DNA of 64,000 nt. Origin: an uncultured Candidatus Actinomarina sp. Its GTDB lineage: Bacteria > Actinomycetota > Acidimicrobiia > Actinomarinales > Actinomarinaceae. The translations under genes were made by a program, and so were the position numbers. The notes beneath the pieces were generated by a model. That model was not told where the DNA came from. It did not search any database and saw only the letters and a list, made by a program, of their open reading frames with translations. How positions within the stretch are numbered: the stretch's first letter is position 1; the number at the start of each line of letters is the position of its first letter. Below, in pieces: positions 116 through 59,812 of the stretch. Where the stretch lies: positions 90,499 through 154,498 of the forward strand of contig CACAND010000001.1 of assembly GCA_902533795.1 (NCBI GenBank), written 5' to 3'.

Positions 116-1633
116 ATGAATGATGTACTTGATAAAAAAATTGAAGATGTCTTAGATTCTGCAGACAGAATGTTTATAGCAACAAGTGTTGGTGGAAATT
201 CCTCTGGTGCATCAGTTTTCTATGCCCGTGATGGTGAGGATCTTGTATTTTTTACCTTTAACCCAACAAGAAAAGCAGAGCAAATTCGTTTGAATCCAAG
301 AGTTCACGTAGTTATATGGCCAAAAGGACAAGAAGGAATTAAAGGCCTTCAGATTGATGGTGAGTGTTACAAAATAAAAGATGAACAAGAAAAAGAAAAA
401 GCGTACGAAATGGTTTTATCTACAACTGAGGCATTCAAAGAATATATGGAAGATGACTTTTTAAAGGAAAATGACGTTGTTGGTTATTACCGCATCAAAC
501 CAACAACAATAAAATATGTAGATTTTTATCAAGAAGAACAATTTGAGTGGAGAACATACCCAGGTAATAAAACTTCAGCTGTAAAATTTACCTTTAAACT
601 AGCGTTGAAAAGAGTTGGTCTGTGGTTACGTACTGTAAGAGCCCCCTTTCTTACTGCAACTATTGCACCAATATTAATTGGTGCTTCCGTTGCCTGGAAT
701 GATCTAAAATCAGAAAATTTAAACAGTGCGTGGTCATGGAATATGTTTTGGCTTGTTCTTGGTGGGGCATGTTTGGCACAGATAGCAACGAACGCCTCAA
801 ATGATTATTTTGACCATACATCTAGTGCTGATGAAATAAATAAAGTTGCTAGTCCATTCAATGGAGGTAGTAGAGTAATTCAAGTTGGTTTAATGACTCC
901 TGGACAAGTATTAATTACAGCATTAGTAAGTATTCTTGGAACGATCGGCATAGGACTATATATTAATCAGCAGATAAGCGGTTATATATTCGGAAATACA
1001 CCTATATTATGGACGGGAATTCTTGGAACTTTTCTTGCACTAGGGTATACAGGAGATCCTGTGAGGCTTGGTTATAAAGGTTTTGGAGAAATTGCGATAG
1101 CACTCGGATTTGGTCCTGTGATGGTAATGGGAGCACACTATGTACTTACATTTCCAATGCACAATAATGATTTATCCCTATGGAACTGGGCTGAAGCATT
1201 ACTTGCTTCAATACCTATTGCACTATTAGTAATGCTTATAGTTTGGATAAATCAGTTTCAAGATGCACCCTCAGATGCAGCAGTTGGTAAAAATACCTGG
1301 GTAGTTAGAACGGCCATAAATGATGGTTGGATGAGACTTGAAAAACCATTATCTTTATACAAACAGTTTATGGTCGAAGCCTTTCTCTCTGTTGCATTAA
1401 TTGGTCTCCTAAGCTTTTTCACTGAGTTTGGAACTGTTTATGCTTTCATTGCTTTGCTGCCTTTGGCATTAGTTTGGAAAGCGTTCAAAATGGCCGATGA
1501 GTGGATGATTAAATGGAACGATCCAGATGCTGATAGGCAAAAAGTTCCTTATGAATTATTACTTGTAAACGTTTCAACTATTGGCATACACTTTTTAACT
1601 GGATTATTACTTGCTGTTGCATATCTAATTTAA
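116..1633 (+). CDS. menA: Fusion of an N-terminal pyridoxamine 5'-phosphate oxidase-like (split-barrel flavin-binding) domain and 1,4-dihydroxy-2-naphthoate polyprenyltransferase (UbiA family)
   Basis: N-terminus has TRKAEQIRLNPRV...GLQIDG (PNPOx-like). C-terminus has RAPFL, NDYFD, GGSRVIQ, YKGFGE, NQFQDAPSDAAVGKNT and many TM helices. Next to menG. Confidence 0.85.
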   Translation: MNDVLDKKIEDVLDSADRMFIATSVGGNSSGASVFYARDGEDLVFFTFNPTRKAEQIRLNPRVHVVIWPKGQEGIKGLQIDGECYKIKDEQEKEKAYEMVLSTTEAFKEYMEDDFLKENDVVGYYRIKPTTIKYVDFYQEEQFEWRTYPGNKTSAVKFTFKLALKRVGLWLRTVRAPFLTATIAPILIGASVAWNDLKSENLNSAWSWNMFWLVLGGACLAQIATNASNDYFDHTSSADEINKVASPFNGGSRVIQVGLMTPGQVLITALVSILGTIGIGLYINQQISGYIFGNTPILWTGILGTFLALGYTGDPVRLGYKGFGEIAIALGFGPVMVMGAHYVLTFPMHNNDLSLWNWAEALLASIPIALLVMLIVWINQFQDAPSDAAVGKNTWVVRTAINDGWMRLEKPLSLYKQFMVEAFLSVALIGLLSFFTEFGTVYAFIALLPLALVWKAFKMADEWMIKWNDPDADRQKVPYELLLVNVSTIGIHFLTGLLLAVAYLI

Positions 1634-50680: not shown

Positions 50681-51049
50681 TTAACTATTTGTTTCTTCTG
50701 ACTCTTTTTCTTCTTGTTCATACCTACTTAAAGCAAGCATAAACATGATGAATAGAATCAATGAACCTGCAAAATATGTAAGAGGTATGATTCTGATCTC
50801 AAGTGCATTTAAACCGTCGATTGATGCAGGAGCAGGGCCTCTTGGTGCATAAAGAAGAAAAAGGAAAGAATTAATAACTAGCCAACCAAAAGTAGCAGCA
50901 CCAACAACTAAAAATCCAAGCCTTCTACCAAGATTTGTTGCATTCAAGACAAAAGTTGAGCCAAAAAAAGAAAGTATGAAAAATATAAATAGAACTATTC
51001 CGGTAAAAGTAAGGTTGGACGATAAAAGTGTCCTCATTATTTCACGCAT
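50681..51049 (-). CDS. Small 3-TM protein, last gene of the Rieske/cytochrome b operon
   Basis: Hydrophobic. Overlaps the stop of the diheme cytochrome c gene. Confidence 0.7.
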   Translation of the reverse strand: MREIMRTLLSSNLTFTGIVLFIFFILSFFGSTFVLNATNLGRRLGFLVVGAATFGWLVINSFLFLLYAPRGPAPASIDGLNALEIRIIPLTYFAGSLILFIMFMLALSRYEQEEKESEETNS

Positions 51050-52466
51050 CAGGTGTCATTCCTCTCAAATAATCTATTACTAATTCTATATCTGACTGTG
51101 GAAGCACTGCACCAAAACCAGGCATTTTTCCACCACCTACTCCATTCACTCCATACCCTTTACCGTTTACGGAACCATTAATGATAAAGTCAATAAAATC
51201 ATCACGTTCTTTAAATTGAATGTTTACTCTTCCTCCCCTTAAAGCAGGCCCCAAGCCACCTGAGCCAATTTGTTTAGTGTAAGCAGCACCAGCAGAATAA
51301 CCTGCAGTATGACATCTTGCACAATATGCATTAAATATACCTACGGCTCTAATTGCTTTATCGTAATCTCCGTCGAAAGTTGAATCAGCTATATCTTGGA
51401 AATCGATAAGCCACAGCTTTTGTTGGTATGCATTTTCTAAAAATGCTAAACCTGTTTCAGCTTCATCCATAAACTTGTCATATCCATCAGTAAGTATTCC
51501 AAGATTAATAACTTTTGTTTCAAGTTCAGACAAGAAACCTCTAACTATAGAAGCATCTTTCCTTCCAGGAATCGATTCCTCCTCGTCTGGATTAAGATTT
51601 AATACTGGAGTTCCTAACATTTCAGTTATCGTTTCACTGTATGCTGAGAGATCAGTTTCAACACTGTCATACAATCCATCTTCATCAGTATCAATACCGC
51701 TTTGTCTAGAAATTAACGCTGAGACGACCTCAACTGCTTCAATTGCGATTGGTAATCTAATTGGTGCCATTTCTATATCGTTTATTAACTCATTTTGTTT
51801 GGCTATTTCACTCTCAACTTGTAAATCGGAATTTTCTATTCTTAATAATGATGAATTTATATTTCCCTCAATTTCAAGCAATTCTTCATTTTGAGGAATT
51901 TGAAAGGAGTGTAAATACTCAATCAAATCACTTAATTGGCCGTCGTTCATAGGTCCACCACCTTTAAGACCCCAAGCTGGCATTGGTGAATTTGCTCTTC
52001 CATAGATAAGCCAATATAAAACTTCATCATCATCGTATCTGTAAAATACATCATTAATAGCAGGGGCTACCCAAGTAACACTTACCCCACTTCTTTTTTC
52101 AACATACGATGCAGCACCACCACTTCCATCTGCACCATGGCAGTTACCACACCCAAATTCTTCATATAAATGTTGCCCTCTTTCTACAGAAACATCATCA
52201 AATTCCTCTACAAAGCTTTCTTGTCTAGCTGGTTCACCTAAATAATATAAAGGAATCATAATTGTTAAAAGAGAAGCTAAAACAACAGCAACTGACAAAA
52301 TCTTATCTAGCTGAGTTGTCTCAAGCTGGTCATCAGGTAAATATTTTTGAAGATTTCTTGGTACTTTTTTAATCTTTCCTGCACCTCGAAATCCGACAGC
52401 AGAAAAGTATGCAATTGCGCCGATAACAGCTAAAGCAATAAGTGTTATAAAAAGTGAACTATTCAT
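51042..52466 (-). CDS. Membrane-anchored diheme cytochrome c
   Basis: CGNCH with SPMPAW, CARCH with KMPGF, two N-terminal TM helices. Confidence 0.9.
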   Translation of the reverse strand: MNSSLFITLIALAVIGAIAYFSAVGFRGAGKIKKVPRNLQKYLPDDQLETTQLDKILSVAVVLASLLTIMIPLYYLGEPARQESFVEEFDDVSVERGQHLYEEFGCGNCHGADGSGGAASYVEKRSGVSVTWVAPAINDVFYRYDDDEVLYWLIYGRANSPMPAWGLKGGGPMNDGQLSDLIEYLHSFQIPQNEELLEIEGNINSSLLRIENSDLQVESEIAKQNELINDIEMAPIRLPIAIEAVEVVSALISRQSGIDTDEDGLYDSVETDLSAYSETITEMLGTPVLNLNPDEEESIPGRKDASIVRGFLSELETKVINLGILTDGYDKFMDEAETGLAFLENAYQQKLWLIDFQDIADSTFDGDYDKAIRAVGIFNAYCARCHTAGYSAGAAYTKQIGSGGLGPALRGGRVNIQFKERDDFIDFIINGSVNGKGYGVNGVGGGKMPGFGAVLPQSDIELVIDYLRGMTPDA

Positions 52467-52468
52467 TA

Positions 52469-53347
52469 TTATTCCTCAGGTGCGGCAATAGTAATACATG
52501 AAATACCTTGGGGATATTTAACTGACATTCCAGCAGCACGTGGAGATTCTATGATAGAACCCGTATCAATAATAAATTTTCCAGATGAGTTTACATTCAC
52601 TATGAATCTATCAAGATTACGAGGTGCTGGTCCAGCGTAGTATTCACCAACCATATTATATTTTGATCCGTGACAAGGACATTCAAACCCTTGAGAGGTA
52701 TTACACCAAGGGACTCTGCAACCAAGGTGTACACACCTTTGATAAACAGCAACAAGTCCATCAGCAACTGTTCCACTATCAGAAAATTGTGAGTTTCCTG
52801 ATTGTTCGAATGGTAATACATAAGCTCTAGCAGCTGGGATGAAAGCAGGAATCACAGATCCATCAGATTGAAAAATTTGGTCTTTTAAATCTTGAACTCT
52901 TCCTGCGTCAATCTTAGAACCAAAACCTCCAGAGACTTTAGGATAGAAAAATCCCAGCCAGGAAATTAATTGAATTCCGGCGAAAGCGCCGAAAGTAATT
53001 CCTAATGCTTTTCCCAGGAATTGTCTACGAGTCATTCCAGCTTCTTCTTCTGATATTTCTTCGTAAATAATTTCTTCTTTTACTTTTATTGATCCATCTG
53101 TTTGAATATCATCTTTTTCTTCAATATCTTCAGATAAATTTTCTTCTTCATTTTCAGGTTCATCAGGAGCTAAAAAGTTTGTTTGTGATTTATCTACTTT
53201 TAGTGCTCTCTTATCTAAATTTTTCTTCCAATTCAGCCTTTTATTTACAGCTTTAGGCGTTCTACCAGTGACTACTGCAATGATTCCAATGACGCCAAAT
53301 AAACCGATAAAAGCAATTGCAATAAATGAAAGTTGTACCAGGCTCAT
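52469..53347 (-). CDS. Rieske iron-sulfur subunit of a menaquinol:cytochrome c reductase
   Basis: CVHLGC and CPCHGSKY boxes, internal Tat motif TRRQFL, extra N-terminal TM. Confidence 0.95.
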   Translation of the reverse strand: MSLVQLSFIAIAFIGLFGVIGIIAVVTGRTPKAVNKRLNWKKNLDKRALKVDKSQTNFLAPDEPENEEENLSEDIEEKDDIQTDGSIKVKEEIIYEEISEEEAGMTRRQFLGKALGITFGAFAGIQLISWLGFFYPKVSGGFGSKIDAGRVQDLKDQIFQSDGSVIPAFIPAARAYVLPFEQSGNSQFSDSGTVADGLVAVYQRCVHLGCRVPWCNTSQGFECPCHGSKYNMVGEYYAGPAPRNLDRFIVNVNSSGKFIIDTGSIIESPRAAGMSVKYPQGISCITIAAPEE

Positions 53348-54099
53348 TCGAAATGGACCCAGTCAAGTAAGTCATCAAACCAAACACCATCAATCCAAGG
53401 ATATGTCCAGTTCCAACCTGGGCCTCTAAATAATATACCAATTAAACTCAATGTTCCCGCTCCTGCCAGAAAAAATGTCCAAAGCATAATTGCATATTTT
53501 CTTTTTGACGGTTTATTATCCTTATTTCTATCTATATATGGAATAGCCATAAATGCTGCCACACCAATAATTAAAGGAATCATAACTCCAGCAATCTGTG
53601 GATCCCAGTATGAAAGTAATTCTTGTAAACCAAGGAAATACCATGGTGCTTTTGCAGGGTTTGGAGTAATGTTTGGATTTGCTTCTTCAAGTAATGGGGC
53701 CTGCAAAATTGCGCTAATAAAAATAAGAAAAGCTGTCATAGCCATCAAAGATATAAATTCTGGAAGCATTAAATGTGGCCAGGTGTTTACTTTATCTACT
53801 GGCTCAGAAGTAGGTTTTTGTATCGGTTTGGCTTTTACAACTGTCAATAGTCTCTGTGTAACTCTTGTTTCTGGAGCAAAATCAACTTCAGCTGGTATAT
53901 CAGCTTTTACAGCTGCTGCTGGTGCTGGTGCTTCTTTGACTTCAATTGGTTTTACATCTATAACTTCTGGTTCTTTTGAAATAGTTGTAGGCTCTGCCTC
54001 ACCCTTCATTTCAGCTAATGCTTGCTCTACAGATATACCTAAAGCTTTTGCTCTTGCCTCAGCTGTTTTTATTAATAAATGTTCTGGAATATCAACCAT
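53344..54099 (-). CDS. Cytochrome b C-terminal subunit (subunit IV/PetD-like) with an N-terminal extension (start moved to ATG 54099)
   Basis: TWPHL, APLLEEANP, TPNPAKAPWYF (PEWY-equivalent), PYIDR. Confidence 0.88.
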   Translation of the reverse strand: MVDIPEHLLIKTAEARAKALGISVEQALAEMKGEAEPTTISKEPEVIDVKPIEVKEAPAPAAAVKADIPAEVDFAPETRVTQRLLTVVKAKPIQKPTSEPVDKVNTWPHLMLPEFISLMAMTAFLIFISAILQAPLLEEANPNITPNPAKAPWYFLGLQELLSYWDPQIAGVMIPLIIGVAAFMAIPYIDRNKDNKPSKRKYAIMLWTFFLAGAGTLSLIGILFRGPGWNWTYPWIDGVWFDDLLDWVHFE

Positions 54100-54110
54100 A
54101 TATATAAAAA

Positions 54111-54890
54111 CTAGAGGGGACCAGAGATCCCTCCATCCTTTCTGACTCTCCAAAAATGGATCGCCATAAATATAACGATTATGAACGGGAGAAATAAAAC
54201 ATGTAAAACATAGAAACGGAGCAAAGTAGCTTCTGTTGCTTCTAATCCTGCAAATAAGGCAAATTTTACCTGAGCGCCAATTACAGGTGTGTAGCTAGCC
54301 ATGTTTCCTCCAACGGTAACCGCCCAAATAGCTAACTGGTCCCATGGAAGAAGATACCCAGTAAAAGATAAAAGCAAGGTTAATAAAAGCAAGATAACCC
54401 CAATTACCCAGTTAAACTCTCTTGGTGCTTTATATGCTCCATGATAAAACACTCTTGACATGTGAAGGAAGACTACGATGACCATTATATGTGCAGCCCA
54501 CCTGTGCATATTTCGTACTAATGAGCCAAAAGCTATTGAAGTTTGTAGAGATTGAATATCAACATAAGCCATTTCAGTTGGTCTAAAATAAAACATTAAC
54601 CATATTCCTGTAATTGTAAGAACAATAAATGTAAAAAAGCTTAAACCTCCAAGACATAATGTGTAAGACAATCTCACAGCATGTCTTTTAACCTTTACTG
54701 GGTGAAGATGGTACAAAACATTGTTCATAACAACATATGATCTGTTTCTTGGGCTGTCGGAATATCCTTTTCTGAATGGTGATCCTGGACGAAAGATACT
54801 TCCCCATAATGAGCTTTCCTTCAGTGAGTCCCCTAGACCTGCACTTATATCTTTTACACGATCTCTAAACTTTATTTTTTCATTCTTCAT
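54111..54890 (-). CDS. Cytochrome b6-like N-terminal subunit (PetB-like)
   Basis: CLGG, RNMHRWAAH...LHMSRV, PREFNW, GYLLPWDQ, LH-x14-H, GISGPL C-terminus. Confidence 0.95.
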   Translation of the reverse strand: MKNEKIKFRDRVKDISAGLGDSLKESSLWGSIFRPGSPFRKGYSDSPRNRSYVVMNNVLYHLHPVKVKRHAVRLSYTLCLGGLSFFTFIVLTITGIWLMFYFRPTEMAYVDIQSLQTSIAFGSLVRNMHRWAAHIMVIVVFLHMSRVFYHGAYKAPREFNWVIGVILLLLTLLLSFTGYLLPWDQLAIWAVTVGGNMASYTPVIGAQVKFALFAGLEATEATLLRFYVLHVLFLPFIIVIFMAIHFWRVRKDGGISGPL

Positions 54891-55340
54891 TTAAAGTCTT
54901 CCATATATATATCCATGTCTATCATTTCTTTCTCCAGAGTCTTCATCCCATGGAGCTTCATAGACACCGTTATTAATTGCTGCATCTGCCAACGATCCTG
55001 CAAATTTACCCAAAGAAATTACTCCTGTTGGACATCTATCAACACATAATGCACATCTAGTACATGCATCTTCGTCAACAACAAAAAATCCTGATTCATT
55101 TTCTTCCATACTTGGTGCTTCAACATTGATAGAGTCTTCAATAGCATCTGTTGACAAGTAGTGAATACATTTCCATGGACATATATCAACACAACCTTCG
55201 CATAAAATACATTCTGCTTCATCTATGTGTAGAAATTGTTTCGGTCTTACTCTTGATGAAATCTTTTCAGCATCAACCATGGCAAGGTTGTATTGTTTTT
55301 CAAATTCAGGCATCTCAATAAGTACTTCTGATTTAGCCAT
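54891..55340 (-). CDS. 2x[4Fe-4S] ferredoxin
   Basis: CILCEGCVDICP and CTRCALCVDRCP. Confidence 0.9.
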   Translation of the reverse strand: MAKSEVLIEMPEFEKQYNLAMVDAEKISSRVRPKQFLHIDEAECILCEGCVDICPWKCIHYLSTDAIEDSINVEAPSMEENESGFFVVDEDACTRCALCVDRCPTGVISLGKFAGSLADAAINNGVYEAPWDEDSGERNDRHGYIYGRL

Positions 55341-55926
55341 CAGCACCTACCTTTACTACTTCTTTTCCATAATCAGAAATTCTTGTTTTACCTCTCTCTT
55401 TTGCTTCATTGATATCCTGAATTAAATATCCAACAACAAAAGCGGTTACTAATGCACCTGTAGAAATTCCAAGTTGAATAATATCTTTAAGTGCTCCAAG
55501 ACTGAGACCAATTTCATTACCAAGAAAAAGAATAGGCGGAAAGTTTATAAATTCTCTTTGATTAGTCCATTCAAGAGGTCCCTGAGAAAGGTTAAGCCAT
55601 TCAGATGGTAAAACTCCAAAAATTAGTGCGAATTGGATCCAGCTTAAGAAAGCAAGATATGTTGCTCTTGCCCATGTCATCTCTGTATCTTCCCAAGCTA
55701 ACATTGCCATTCCAATCAAAAGAAGTTGCCCAGCTCCAAATGCTATTAGTTGGCCAATAGTTTGCATTAACCATCCTCGAGGCATCCAATTAAAGTAATC
55801 AATTACTTCCCCCTCTGGAAAACCAGCAAAATGTGCAATAATGACCCCGATAGTGACACCACCGATTCCAGCAAATATTAAAGCTACGCCGATTTTGTAT
55901 CGATTAGTAAATATAAAATTTAACAA
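55333..55926 (-). CDS. Uncharacterised 4-TM protein, first gene of the cytochrome b operon
   Basis: Hydrophobic segments. Overlaps the ferredoxin start. Confidence 0.75.
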   Translation of the reverse strand: MLNFIFTNRYKIGVALIFAGIGGVTIGVIIAHFAGFPEGEVIDYFNWMPRGWLMQTIGQLIAFGAGQLLLIGMAMLAWEDTEMTWARATYLAFLSWIQFALIFGVLPSEWLNLSQGPLEWTNQREFINFPPILFLGNEIGLSLGALKDIIQLGISTGALVTAFVVGYLIQDINEAKERGKTRISDYGKEVVKVGADG

Positions 55927-56095
55927 GTTTCCCTCTACACGTCATTAACTCAAAACTTTCAATACCTATTGTATCAAGAATTGGGTACATAATATAAATT
56001 TTATAACGGTACTTTTTTAAGAAATTACATATTTTATTGACGTATTTTTTACAGATTAATAGTAAAGTCAAATTGAGAACTTACTATTTAAACAA

Positions 56096-57499
56096 ATGAA
56101 AATAAAAATTTTTCCAAAAAATGAACAAGAATTTTCAAAATTTTTTATTGTTGTTATGCCCTTTTTATTATTACTTTTTGGAGGTATATCACTATTAAAA
56201 GAAGCTTATTTTCTTTTTGTGAATATTCTTCCCCAAAATATTGTATTTAATTACGGTTTTCTAGATATATTAAATAATCATATAACTTATAGCCTTTTGC
56301 TATCATTCTTAATCGTATTTTTAACTTCATATCTTTTACCAAAAACTCTTGGCAGGAGGTTGGTTATATTTCCAATTTTCTTCCTAACCTCACTAGGTGT
56401 AATAGGTTTAGAGTCTTTAGATTTATTATTAGGGTTTTTGTTTCCCAATAACTTTTTTTCTTTTGGTAATACAAGTTATACAATGCTCTTCAAAATTTTA
56501 ATTTTGTTTGCTTTTGTAAGTCTTTTATCAATAAATATTCTTGCCAAAAAAGAGGCTTCCATGTTTATAAGTGCGCAATATTTATATGGAGCAGCTTTAT
56601 TTTATGCTCTTTCATTAGTTATTTATCGTGGAAATTTTTCTGTATTTAGTGATAATTTTTTTATTAACTCTATGTATGTATCTACACATATATATGTTGG
56701 ATATTCTTTTGTATTTTTAGCATTGCTTCATTTTATGACTACAAAGGGAATCAACGGAACATTATATAGTAAAACTTTAGGATCAATTAGTTTTTGGGGA
56801 TATCTATTTTTATTGCCATGGACTAACTTTAAATTTTATTTTGGTTCAGTTTTGCCTAATTGGATTGAAAACATTTCACTTTATTTATCATTAAGCTTGG
56901 CTCTACCACTGCTTGCAGTCACAGTTAATTTTTTTAGAACTGTAACAACTAGAGATGAAGAAAATAAAATAATTTATGGCCTTGTTAGTTTTTCGTTTGG
57001 AATTTTCCTAGTAACTAATCTCTTTCAAATTGTTTCATCATTATCAAACATTATCCCCATACTTAGTCTTACAAGTTTTGAAATTGCAATAAGATATGGC
57101 TACGTTTTTAGTTCTATATTGATATCTATTGCTTTTATTTATTATCTCATTCCAAAGATCTTTGGTAGAGAAGTAAAATATACAAGACTTGAGTCTCTTA
57201 CTGCCTATACTTTGAAAATTGTTGTATCTGGCACATTATTCTCTAATGCTTTAATAGGTATAATTTCTGGGTATTCGTGGAATGCTGGTGCAAATGCAGG
57301 AAATCCAACAATATATGGTGAAGGTTTTGCGTTGTTATGGTCGCTAATAAGTACTCCTTTATCAGTAAATTTGTTTTTATCAGTTTTGCTCCTTTTACCA
57401 TTTTTTCTATTCTTTATATCTGTGATAAAAGCCATAGTAAATGGAGAAATCACAGAGGCTGAAACAATAGAGCTTACAGAAGAAGAGCTTCCAGTATGA
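56096..57499 (+). CDS. Degenerate cbb3-type oxidase subunit I (CcoN)-like membrane protein lacking the heme/CuB histidines
   Basis: About 12 TM helices. Retains LYSKTLGSISFW, LPNW, VNFFRT, YYLIPKIFGRE. Followed by a CcoO-like gene. Confidence 0.65.
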   Translation: MKIKIFPKNEQEFSKFFIVVMPFLLLLFGGISLLKEAYFLFVNILPQNIVFNYGFLDILNNHITYSLLLSFLIVFLTSYLLPKTLGRRLVIFPIFFLTSLGVIGLESLDLLLGFLFPNNFFSFGNTSYTMLFKILILFAFVSLLSINILAKKEASMFISAQYLYGAALFYALSLVIYRGNFSVFSDNFFINSMYVSTHIYVGYSFVFLALLHFMTTKGINGTLYSKTLGSISFWGYLFLLPWTNFKFYFGSVLPNWIENISLYLSLSLALPLLAVTVNFFRTVTTRDEENKIIYGLVSFSFGIFLVTNLFQIVSSLSNIIPILSLTSFEIAIRYGYVFSSILISIAFIYYLIPKIFGREVKYTRLESLTAYTLKIVVSGTLFSNALIGIISGYSWNAGANAGNPTIYGEGFALLWSLISTPLSVNLFLSVLLLLPFFLFFISVIKAIVNGEITEAETIELTEEELPV

Positions 57500-57716
57500 G
57501 TGAACTCTTAAGTAAAGTCGCAGAAATATTAAATGCTCCAGAATCGTTGGTACAACGATCTGCAGAGGCTAGAGCGGAAGCATCAGGTAAAAGTGTTGAT
57601 GAGGTTTTACAATCTTGGGCAGGTGGTGAAAGTGTAGCTGCTGTCGAAAAGAGTGTGGAAGAACCAGCACCTGTGGAAGAACCAGCACCTGTGGAAGAAC
57701 CAGCACCTGTGGAAGA
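57496..57716 (+). repeat. 221-bp perfect direct repeat, copy 1
   Basis: Identical by base comparison to 58289-58509. Starts exactly at the ATG. Confidence 0.95.
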
Positions 57717-58296
57717 ACTCACAACTAAAGATGAATCTTCGATTGATGTTCAAGAAGATGATGATGAAGAAATTGTTCAACTTTTAATAGAAGAAGAACT
57801 TATAGAAGCTAAAAAAGAGAGTTCATTTGCAGTCTTAATGGGAGTAATTGGAGTTGTAGTATTCACATATTTATTTGCTTTTTCAATTCCAAAACAACAA
57901 AGCGAAGATCTCGTATTGGAATCTTTAAATAATTCCGTACGCGTAAGTGAAGAAATTCTTGAAGGTGCAACAGTTTATAATCAACTTAATTGTCAATCAT
58001 GTCATACACAGAATGTGAGGGTGCTAATACCTGATTCACAAAACGGAAAAGTTTTAAAGAATAGGTTTGCAAATAAAAATTTAATTCTTAATACTGGATT
58101 ACTAAGGTTAGCTCCAGATTTATCTACTCTTGCATCCAGAGAGCCAACAAATGATGGGGACTGGCTTAAAAAATATTTGACCGATCCATCATCAGTAAAA
58201 GAAGAGATTCCGCATCCATCAATAAATTTCTTAAATGAACAAGATTTAGATTATTTGATAACTTATTTATTATCTTTAGGAAGTACAAATGAGTGA
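57496..58296 (+). CDS. CcoO-like monoheme cytochrome c with an N-terminal repeat module
   Basis: GATVY...CQSCHTQNVR, RLAPDLS, WLKKYLTDP...P, DYLITYLLSLG match the CcoO pattern. Confidence 0.75.
   Translation: MSELLSKVAEILNAPESLVQRSAEARAEASGKSVDEVLQSWAGGESVAAVEKSVEEPAPVEEPAPVEEPAPVEELTTKDESSIDVQEDDDEEIVQLLIEEELIEAKKESSFAVLMGVIGVVVFTYLFAFSIPKQQSEDLVLESLNNSVRVSEEILEGATVYNQLNCQSCHTQNVRVLIPDSQNGKVLKNRFANKNLILNTGLLRLAPDLSTLASREPTNDGDWLKKYLTDPSSVKEEIPHPSINFLNEQDLDYLITYLLSLGSTNE
57655..57716 (+). repeat. 18-bp tandem repeat gtggaagaaccagcacct, 3 units plus a partial unit (VEEPAP)
   Basis: Direct reading. Confidence 0.95.
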
Positions 58297-58509
58297 ACTC
58301 TTAAGTAAAGTCGCAGAAATATTAAATGCTCCAGAATCGTTGGTACAACGATCTGCAGAGGCTAGAGCGGAAGCATCAGGTAAAAGTGTTGATGAGGTTT
58401 TACAATCTTGGGCAGGTGGTGAAAGTGTAGCTGCTGTCGAAAAGAGTGTGGAAGAACCAGCACCTGTGGAAGAACCAGCACCTGTGGAAGAACCAGCACC
58501 TGTGGAAGA
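58289..58509 (+). repeat. 221-bp perfect direct repeat, copy 2 (tandem array at 58448-58509)
   Basis: Identical to 57496-57716, offset 793 bp. Confidence 0.95.
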
Positions 58510-59242
58510 GATTGAAAAAAAAGAAGATAAAAATGAAATTGTTTCGGAAGAAAAAGAAAAACCACAGACATTATCTTCTTCAAGAAATACCAAAAAAATA
58601 ACTCAAAAAATAGCTTTTGCTAATAAAACATTAAATATCAAAGTTAATGCAGAAACTACTTTGCCTAGATGGTTAAATGTAAGTTTTGTCCTTATTCCTT
58701 TATTTATAGTAATTGGAATCATAAACACATCATCGACTCAAGAATGTGGTGAAAACGGCATTCTTGATATAGATAGAAAATCTCAATTGACAATTAATTG
58801 TGATGGTTCTGCTTTTGAAGGCAAGGGTGTTGGCTCAGCAAGTTCTATAAATTATATTGCTCTTGGACAACAAATATATTCTGGAGCAGCTGCTTGTGCA
58901 GGTTGCCACGGTGTGAATGGAGGTGGTGGTGTTGGACCAGCATTTACTGGGGGTGAGCTCTACACAACATTCCCAACTTGTAGTGATCATGCACTTTGGA
59001 TTGAGCTAGGATCAGCAGGATGGCAAGCTGATGTTGGGCCAGCTTATGGTGCCGAAGATAAAGTTTCTATTGGAGGAATGCCAGGTTTTGCTGGAAAACT
59101 TACCGAAGATGAACTTTATGCAGTAGTTGTATTTGAAAGGGTTGTCTTCGGTGGTGGGGATACAAATGAAGTATTAGAAGATTGTGGTCTTCTAGAAACT
59201 GAAGAAGAAGTAACTGCTGAAGCAGTAGAAACATCAAGTTAA
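58289..59242 (+). CDS. Membrane-anchored monoheme cytochrome c with an N-terminal repeat module
   Basis: CAGCH, GGVGPAF, GGMPGF (Met ligand), one TM. Confidence 0.88.
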   Translation: MSELLSKVAEILNAPESLVQRSAEARAEASGKSVDEVLQSWAGGESVAAVEKSVEEPAPVEEPAPVEEPAPVEEIEKKEDKNEIVSEEKEKPQTLSSSRNTKKITQKIAFANKTLNIKVNAETTLPRWLNVSFVLIPLFIVIGIINTSSTQECGENGILDIDRKSQLTINCDGSAFEGKGVGSASSINYIALGQQIYSGAAACAGCHGVNGGGGVGPAFTGGELYTTFPTCSDHALWIELGSAGWQADVGPAYGAEDKVSIGGMPGFAGKLTEDELYAVVVFERVVFGGGDTNEVLEDCGLLETEEEVTAEAVETSS

Positions 59243-59371
59243 ATAAACAAATAAATTCAAGTTGATTGTTTAAATAATCAAACTACTATTTTTTTTATGT
59301 TGCCAGCAATATATATTCATGTATTTTTGATCGCATTTAGTATTGTTCTTTTCTATGTAATTTTATAAAAT

Positions 59372-59812
59372 ATGGCCAAAAAAAAGAAAGAGAAAAGAGC
59401 CGTAGGTTGGAAAGAACACGTTGCTCTTCCTGATTTAAAGATTAAAAGTGTAATAGCAAAAATTGATACTGGTGCAAATGTTGCAACTATAGATGCTGCA
59501 AACATAAAATTTATTACTAAGAATGATATTAAGTACGTAAAGTTCACTGTTAAAAAAAGAAACAATACAATTAGAAAAACCTCTGCACCTCTTGCAGGAT
59601 TTAAAAGAATAAAAAGCTCTAATGGTGATGTTGAAAAAAGACCGTACATAAAAACTGATATCCTGATGGATGGTATTACAAAAAATATTGAACTTACTCT
59701 TACCGATAGAGGACCTATGGATTACACGATGTTGATTGGAAGAAAAGCCTTAGGGAGAAGATGGGTAGTTAATCCATCCATAGGTTTTTTGACAAAGCCT
59801 TCAGGAGAATAA
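59372..59812 (+). CDS. RimK-associated retropepsin-like protein
   Basis: [26 protein letters not shown]...MLIGR. Confidence 0.88.

Follow-up and report, generated by a model that had tools for sequence, protein, structure and literature searches.

A CcoN-like protein of Candidatus Actinomarina that has lost most haem and copper ligands and may serve as a scaffold beside complex III

In CcoN, subunit I of the cbb3-type oxidases, six histidines bind the metal centres (two for haem b, one for haem b3 and three for CuB), and a cross-linked active-site tyrosine lies in transmembrane helix 7 (TM7). The actinobacterial bcc-aa3 supercomplex follows another design, in which a membrane-bound dihaem cytochrome c replaces the soluble carrier; we know of no CcoN-like extra subunit there. 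In the part of a survey of haem-copper oxidases consulted here, gNOR is the only family in which the active-site histidines are not completely conserved (Murali et al. 2024, PMC11214002). Sections of a review report that genes for alternative complex III (ACIII) and cbb3 oxidase adjoin in verrucomicrobial methanotrophs and Opitutaceae, and cite an ACIII-oxidase supercomplex (PMC8498564). Here we describe a ligand-poor CcoN-like protein of 467 amino acids (aa), encoded at 56096-57499 (plus strand) in a 64,000-nucleotide stretch of DNA from an uncultured Candidatus Actinomarina sp. (GenBank assembly GCA_902533795.1, contig CACAND010000001.1, positions 90,499 to 154,498; this whole stretch is called the window below, and its own numbering is used). 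By alignment to CcoN, five of the six ligand histidines and the tyrosine are lost. We consider it probable (about 0.6) that the protein is a non-catalytic membrane scaffold for a cytochrome c relay at complex III.

The open reading frame (ORF) begins with ATG, is intact, and encodes at least 12 transmembrane helices. Orthologues keep the same N-terminus, so the start codon is assigned correctly. The source genome consists of 0.98 Mb in 13 contigs and is 90% complete. The nearest homologues carry the NCBI names Candidatus Actinomarina or Acidimicrobiia bacterium.

Within haem-copper oxidase subunit I, the protein falls in the CcoN branch (cbb3, C-family). It scores above the Pfam gathering cut-off for subunit I of this superfamily (PF00115, COX1; E 4.9e-11, 42.6 bits against 34.8, residues 15-399), and a profile of the Actinomarina family (21 rows) aligned by hhalign with one of ten intact CcoN over 412 columns (probability 99.3%, E 2.9e-20). 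Five solved CcoN chains were matched by phmmer, with E from 1.7e-7 (3mk7_A of P. stutzeri) to 1.6e-5. An AlphaFold model from an alignment of 76 rows, to which distant relatives had been added, has the 12-helix subunit I fold, with a predicted local distance difference test score (pLDDT) of 90.0 and a predicted template modelling score of 0.91; a model from the 21 close homologues alone gave pLDDT 45 and was discarded. When the model was compared with the PDB by Foldseek, CcoN chains of cbb3 oxidases took the first seven places (TM-score 0.83-0.85, about 465 columns, 14-16% identity), followed by NorB (0.78-0.80) and then by A/B-type subunit I. A protein atlas search returned COX1 clusters only. 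Similarity to the COX1 fold, on which the first-pass annotation of this ORF depended, is thus well founded, and the structural motifs that it listed as retained are in place (LYSKTLGSISFW, LPNW and YYLIPKIFGRE). The score for the CcoN equivalog model TIGR00780 is far below its cut-off (32.4 bits against 583.15).

The whole protein contains three histidines (H62, H198 and H212), the number counted in the first-pass annotation, and the four stretches that it had equated with ligand motifs lie at residues 53-62 (YGFLDILNNH), 192-198 (SMYVSTH), 240-247 (LPWTNFKF) and 326-334 (TSFEIAIRY). The hhalign alignment places N60 at the haem b histidine of TM2 (the family has N, S or D here), L240 at the cross-linked tyrosine of TM7, K246 and F247 (codons 56831-56836, plus strand) at the CuB histidine pair, and R333 (codon 57092-57094, plus strand) at the haem b histidine of TM10. 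The haem b3 histidine falls in a one-residue deletion two residues before R333. The sole histidine kept at a ligand position is H198 (codon 56687-56689, plus strand), which is aligned with the CuB histidine of the GHN motif in TM6. The phmmer alignment to 3mk7_A agrees for TM7 and TM10, and for H198 by ungapped extension. Multiple alignments by MAFFT put H198 two columns away from the CuB histidine, so that this equivalence is not beyond doubt. The claim that the protein has no haem or CuB ligands therefore holds for five histidines and the tyrosine and fails for H198, in the stretch SMYVSTH. Given the loss of ligands for haem b, haem b3 and CuB and of the tyrosine, the protein would not reduce O2 or NO by the mechanism of this family.

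Within the 21 Actinomarina sequences, H198 is the only invariant histidine, down to 53% identity. K246, Y194, Y200 and E258 are invariant in the same set, and R333 is at least 90% conserved. H198, K246 and R333 are not retained beyond Actinomarina and its nearest relatives, and the column of H198 is A, S, G, V or Q in all 30 of the other Acidimicrobiia homologues compared. Among 35 checked relatives from other Acidimicrobiia families we found no conserved substitute ligand. Across 41 family members, conservation reaches at least 85% in 28 columns. These hold G, P, W, L, F, T, R and one Glu in the C-terminal tail, and no membrane-embedded H, M, C, K or Y is among them.

A profile search of 1.84 billion representatives recovered 272 proteins at E ≤1e-3. 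Among 63 full-length representatives (430-540 aa), 13 have both the HH and the HxH motif and the rest are without them. The ligand-less profile matched 110 of 301 Acidimicrobiia genomes (at least 80% complete, E ≤1e-15). By family, as labelled here, the matched genomes are 33 of 35 (f1), 37 of 38 (f2), 7 of 11 (f10), 18 of 21 (f12), 7 of 7 (f15) and 2 of 3 (f23); at the same threshold there was no match in the searched genomes of f3, f5, f7, f8, f11, f16, f17 and f20. We checked the ligand columns in 35 of the 76 class matches outside Actinomarina, namely the 30 best and five forms fused to a cytochrome (see below). No histidine at the six ligand columns, and no tyrosine, was found in any of the 30 best (29 of 29 if the unpublished genome G245, locus L046, is set aside), and neither HH nor HxH occurs in the first 500 residues of the five fused forms. 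The canonical metal sites have disappeared both here and in the class relatives checked, where no ligand histidine remains at all. The class tallies of the ligand-less core and of cytochrome b (below) include G245, the latter also G214, and the phylum tally includes G382.

That phylum-wide tally (24 of 201 at E ≤1e-40) is not readable as the range of the ligand-less family: six phylum-level matches from outside the class were checked, and three have the full ligand set, two have none and one has only the two haem b histidines. One locus from another actinobacterial class (L136; G321:C5, 4782-6347, minus strand) has histidines at both haem b columns and no binuclear-centre ligands, and may represent an intermediate state.

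The gene is kept under purifying constraint. Among 12 orthologues (the window and 11 further loci), the ratio of nonsynonymous to synonymous substitution rates (dN/dS; Nei-Gojobori) is 0.071-0.116 in the nine unsaturated pairs, the only ones read (dS 0.06-0.42). The Actinomarina profile matched 31 of 36 genomes of the genus (60-90% complete), and a wider profile of ligand-less members 33 of 35. Seven matches of the former, all with open frames of 467-472 aa, were flagged with one TGA, as would be expected if the match runs into the stop codon of the gene itself. Protein length is constant (463-467 aa) over 53-93% identity. In G009, a genome in a single contig, the core gene lies in two frames (L016, 3459-4127 and 4150-4866), broken near residue 220, with both parts otherwise well conserved; either an error in sequencing or a very recent frameshift may be the cause. 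With this one frameshifted copy as the exception, the first-pass view of a maintained gene with no decay is borne out.

Contigs from RNA libraries (4 runs, 4 studies) touch the core gene. Pieces of X1 lie at 56147-56328 and 56402-56552, and an X3 contig (57332-57565, one mismatch) crosses the junction with the downstream cytochrome gene. A scan of 55800-59500 gave 16 promoter-like sites against 16.5 expected and two terminator-like sites against 1.8 expected.

The core gene is followed by genes for two cytochromes. The first (57496-58296, plus strand) encodes a CcoO/FixO-like monohaem cytochrome c of 266 aa, with an N-terminal cytoplasmic module, one transmembrane helix and the haem motif CQSCH. 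Its Pfam scores are 28.6 bits for FixO (PF02433; cut-off 29.6) and 27.0 bits for Cytochrom_C (cut-off 21.3). The second (58289-59242, plus strand), in the CcoP position, encodes a membrane-anchored monohaem class I cytochrome c of 317 aa with the motif CAGCH (Cytochrom_C 32.4 bits, Cytochrome_CBB3 27.5 bits). The three genes are translationally coupled. Coupling of the open core frame to the CcoO-like gene had been reported in the first-pass annotation; the two overlap as ATGA (stop/start) at 57496-57499, and the CcoO-like gene overlaps that of the second cytochrome by 8 nucleotides (nt). In 14 CcoO-like homologues, CxxCH, then TQ.VR, and GPDL are invariant.

In all five fused loci that were fetched (families f10 and f12), the core and the CcoO-like transmembrane helix and haem c domain form a single ORF of 643-697 aa with a single CxxCH. 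Thus, the protein shares with CcoN the trait of being encoded with a monohaem CcoO, by overlapping genes or as one gene, and binding of the two is predicted by a model of the complex. This model of the core with CcoO-like residues 100-266 reached interface scores (ipSAE) of 0.90, 0.89 and 0.90, and the best of three controls 0.00; contact agreement is at least 94% and partner pLDDT at least 82. The ipSAE mark applied is reached by 116 of 157 solved complexes and by 2 of 215 mismatched pairs. Part of the modelled interface is loop 391-410, which is invariant in the family.

Where CcoO has its canonical axial Met, the CcoO-like protein (residues about 238-242, window 58200-58230) has His (IPHPS) in Actinomarina and most unfused forms, and Met (MPSY) in all fused forms and two others. 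The histidine might provide bis-His ligation and lower the haem potential. In another Actinomarina genome (L005 of G021, 8-757 and 750-1499, minus strand), two tandem CcoO-like genes stand behind the core in place of the CcoO-like and the other cytochrome c.

The two cytochrome genes of the window begin with a direct repeat of 239 nt (57496-57734 and 58289-58527, plus strand, 97% identity), found by repeat search, which forms a common 5' module (about 75 aa, ending in PAPVEE repeats). This N-terminal module gave no Pfam match at E ≤10. In G009 (L016), the two cytochrome genes also share an N-terminal module, identical within that genome and unlike that of the window. The sharing suggests gene conversion between the neighbouring cytochrome genes. 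A module of about 45 aa (PE.LV.RSAEARA.A.G.SV..VL..W) is found at the N-terminus of both cytochromes (57496-57645 and 58289-58438, plus strand) and of subunit IV of complex III (53344-54153, minus strand). In families with a fused core, the downstream gene has three to four tandem copies of it (L047-L051). It may be a cytoplasmic docking element.

An operon of seven genes for complex III diverges from the core and cytochrome trio. In order on the minus strand it encodes a 197-aa four-helix membrane protein of no known family (55333-55926; no Pfam hit), a 2x[4Fe-4S] ferredoxin-like subunit (54891-55346; Pfam Fer4 families), a b6-type cytochrome b (54111-54890; Cytochrome_B 151 bits, NF040969 293 bits), a subunit IV-like protein that corresponds to the C-terminal part of cytochrome b and carries the module described above (53344-54153; Cytochrom_B_C 30 bits; the true start is probably the ATG at 54099), a Rieske iron-sulfur subunit (52469-53347; Rieske 31.7 bits, NF010001 71 bits), a dihaem cytochrome c of 474 aa (51042-52466; two Cytochrome_CBB3/Cytochrom_C stretches) and, at the operon end, a small membrane protein (ORF 50681-51049; the same position is filled in G059). 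This complex III is unusual in its split b6-type cytochrome b, its 2x[4Fe-4S] subunit, the long N-terminal extension of its Rieske protein and its dihaem cytochrome c. At 293 bits, the cytochrome b narrowly exceeds the 290-bit cut-off of the Geobacter ExtP model. The 197-aa protein is conserved in G059 (42% identity) and G009, and in five of five loci its gene lies directly next to the fused CcoN-CcoO gene and diverges from it; the protein is likely an undescribed subunit.

The ten-gene arrangement was also found in G059, a genome of high GC content from another family, with a core 18% identical to that of the window. In the window and in 20 of the 21 further genomes with both coordinates listed (from f2, f10, f12, f15, f23 and f40), the core and cytochrome b genes occupy opposite strands at a distance of 1.2-2.8 kb (1.5-2.8 kb in the 20 further genomes); in the exception, G290, they are 10 kb apart. 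Across the class, a b6-type cytochrome b is present in 285 of 301 genomes and the ligand-less core in 110, so that the core is an accessory of a subset.

The genome itself encodes a single cytochrome b (one PF00033 match). We identified one true COX1 and, beside it, one COX2 with a C-terminal cytochrome c domain, which together indicate a caa3 operon. Neither cytochrome bd nor any other oxidase than caa3 was found in this genome at its 90% completeness.

A second ligand-less group (P0189) has source names of Verrucomicrobia and Methylomirabilota and the JGI name cbb3 subunit I. Its 119 full-length closest homologues, at least 49% identical, have no histidine at the ligand columns in 92 cases, some in 17, and all six with the tyrosine in 10. 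In public genomes, 72 of 80 loci could be classified: 42 have none of the six histidines, 12 a partial set and 18 the complete set. Pfam searches at three loci gave ActA-like, ActB-like, NrfD/ActC and ActD (PF11821) proteins, a cytochrome c, an ORF without Pfam match in the ActF position, COX1, FixO and a further cytochrome c. This order is identical in two loci with a ligand-less core (L052 and L071) and one with an intact core (L055).

Trees place the two ligand-less groups apart. In a FastTree tree of 80 rows, a branch with 98% local support has 37 ligand-less rows of the Acidimicrobiia type on one side, and on the other all 16 intact rows together with the Verrucomicrobiota-type rows. In a quick IQ-TREE tree of 49 rows, a branch with 100% support in the Shimodaira-Hasegawa-like approximate likelihood ratio test sets all 13 intact rows, three of which are CcoN of other actinobacterial classes, and four ligand-less rows of the Verrucomicrobiota type apart from the remaining 32. 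The fewest changes of ligand state on this tree are three, at least two of them forced by strongly supported branches. The separate branch of the Verrucomicrobiota type points to a separate loss. As the trees are unrooted and the Actinomarina branch is long and deviant in composition (rows were chosen by hand from the hits), we hold with moderate confidence that ligands were lost independently in the two types.

Five lines of evidence lead to the scaffold proposal: the fusion to a CcoO-like domain, the overlapping genes, the conserved location next to the sole quinol:cytochrome c oxidoreductase, the finding of no oxidase but caa3, and the ACIII parallel. The ligand-less core would serve as a platform in the membrane, keeping the CcoO-like haem c subunit (and probably also the second cytochrome c) next to the only Rieske/cytochrome b6 complex of the cell. 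Electrons would be barred from the core, and the attached c haems would relay them from complex III towards caa3, the only terminal oxidase found. That the core binds the CcoO-like protein, that it docks on complex III and that electrons flow in this direction are all predictions. The first-pass annotation had left a structural, a regulatory and an ion-conducting role side by side; the five fused loci and a complex model that passes its controls favour the structural one. A bolder version, which we put forward tentatively and regard as rather doubtful, is that the whole cbb3-derived module is a fixed structural adaptor of a supercomplex on Rieske/b6 (on ACIII in Verrucomicrobiota), wired to an A-type oxidase via two c haems, with a quinol-oxidase supercomplex having been turned into an electron-relay scaffold at least twice independently in bacteria, as its oxidase core lost all cofactors, and the shared N-terminal module tying the parts together.

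Several observations weigh against a simple scaffold. The absence of haem and copper is read from aligned residues, and the association with complex III from gene neighbourhood. As solved cbb3 complexes exist, the pass of the complex model may reflect likeness to them only, and the modelled interface is no more conserved than the rest of the protein (0.512 against 0.495 elsewhere; 2204 of 10000 permutations as high). Cytochrome b is found class-wide and the ligand-less core in fewer genomes, so complex III works without it. The RNA-library contigs cover the core gene only in small pieces, and DNA carry-over is possible. In addition, the invariance or near-invariance of H198, K246, E258 and R333 within Actinomarina hints at a specific intramembrane role that a plain scaffold would not explain.

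Some of these residues figure in two other explanations. In one, the protein conducts ions or protons across the membrane or has a regulatory task there; its function would not depend on electron transfer, and the cytochromes would merely be co-encoded. The 12-helix fold of a proton-pumping enzyme is kept, at high model confidence, and K246 in TM7 and R333 in TM10 occupy former ligand sites and are conserved in Actinomarina, with the invariant E258 nearby. However, K246, R333 and E258 are not conserved in other families, and the haem c domain fusion and the start/stop overlaps tie the core to the cytochrome, which makes such a role unlikely, if still the best placed of the alternatives. The protein might otherwise be a redox enzyme still, holding at least one haem or metal by non-canonical ligands (e.g., H198 with the conserved Tyr or Lys residues) and receiving electrons from the CcoO-like haem c. 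The invariance of H198 at the CuB position, and of K246, Y194, Y200 and E258, in the 21 sequences is compatible with this, as are the CxxCH motifs retained in both partner cytochromes and the partial cofactor set suggested by L136, with histidines at the haem b columns only. A change from His to Asp at the gNOR active site is accepted as compatible with catalysis in the portion of Murali et al. (2024, PMC11214002) drawn on here. Against it, H198 is replaced in all 30 other Acidimicrobiia homologues, no candidate ligand is conserved family-wide, the haem b3 histidine is deleted and the second haem b histidine is Arg; a single His would not suffice for CuB or haem in known geometry. We therefore regard a redox enzyme as improbable.

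A role in the assembly or maturation of caa3, complex III or c-type cytochromes, in place of permanent membership of a complex, would suit a gene that adjoins complex III and not the caa3 operon and that is dispensable in many Acidimicrobiia families. The covalent haem c domain in five genomes better suits a permanent complex, however, and Pfam and NCBIfam gave no likeness to known assembly factors; we give this explanation as little credence as that of a redox enzyme. The split gene of G009 and the patchy RNA-library cover could be taken for signs of a decaying pseudogene or an annotation artefact. Homologue lengths, presence in the genus and dN/dS rule this out: dN/dS is 0.07-0.12, length holds at 463-467 aa, the frame is open in all other matches of the genus and class searches, and the gene is retained in a streamlined genome of 1 Mb. 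The chance that the gene is mere debris is negligible. A scaffold for a cytochrome c relay thus remains the explanation that we prefer.

Candidatus Actinomarina has tiny cells and is among the most abundant actinobacteria of the marine surface. When metabolism is reconstructed from genomes, a CcoN/CcoO pair is taken to mean a high-affinity cbb3 oxidase and hence microaerobic respiration, and this reading would be wrong for Candidatus Actinomarina and for many Acidimicrobiia and Verrucomicrobiota. The warning against such automatic annotation in the first-pass annotation is justified: 9 of 120 listed homologues are named 'cbb3-type cytochrome oxidase subunit 1' by JGI and hypothetical by NCBI. 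We found no description of a ligand-less CcoN in the openly accessible literature searched. One study gives 'caa3- and cbb3-type' oxidases for several acid-mine metagenome-assembled genomes, in the section that precedes its Bacteroidota genome (PMC8357290). For bioenergetics, these loci would present a respiratory catalytic core that stays under selection despite the loss of its cofactors, always with a c-type cytochrome and beside a quinol:cytochrome c oxidoreductase. They also indicate an undescribed arrangement of complex III subunits for a whole bacterial class.

Among known systems, the cbb3 oxidase CcoN-CcoO-CcoP (P. stutzeri 3MK7/5DJQ) shares with this locus the subunit I fold (TM-score 0.83 to 3mk7), loop motifs on the periplasmic and cytoplasmic sides, the gene order of core, monohaem CcoO-like protein and further cytochrome c, and the modelled interface of core and CcoO. 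It differs in having the five ligand histidines and the tyrosine that are missing here (the present core scores 32 bits for TIGR00780 against a cut-off of 583), in a third subunit with two haem motifs instead of one, and in lacking the extra N-terminal module on both cytochromes. The bc1-cbb3 supercomplexes of P. aeruginosa (8SMR) and R. capsulatus (6XKW) provide two of the best Foldseek matches (8smr_E and 6xkw_n), and the encoding of a CcoN-type core beside a Rieske/cytochrome b complex recalls them. The oxidase is active there, whereas the present arrangement is known from genes, with a complex III that is b6-type and includes a ferredoxin-like subunit and a dihaem cytochrome c.

The gNOR and divergent haem-copper oxidase families, as far as the text of Murali et al. 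(2024, PMC11214002) was used, also have altered active sites, but the loss here extends to almost every ligand of the three centres. In the Verrucomicrobiota ACIII-cbb3 operons, as the sections used of the review describe them (PMC8498564), a quinol:cytochrome c oxidoreductase is likewise followed by CcoN, FixO and cytochrome c, and our loci show ligand-less (L052, L071) and intact (L055) cores in one slot. Those operons have ACIII in place of Rieske/b6, run on the same strand whereas the genes diverge here, and their cores form a separate branch of the tree. Finally, the actinobacterial bcc-aa3 supercomplex (M. smegmatis 6HWH, C. glutamicum 7QHO) comes from the same phylum, and its subunit I chains are weaker Foldseek matches; it has a long QcrB-type cytochrome b, in contrast to the split b6 and subunit IV encoded beside the ligand-poor core of Candidatus Actinomarina.

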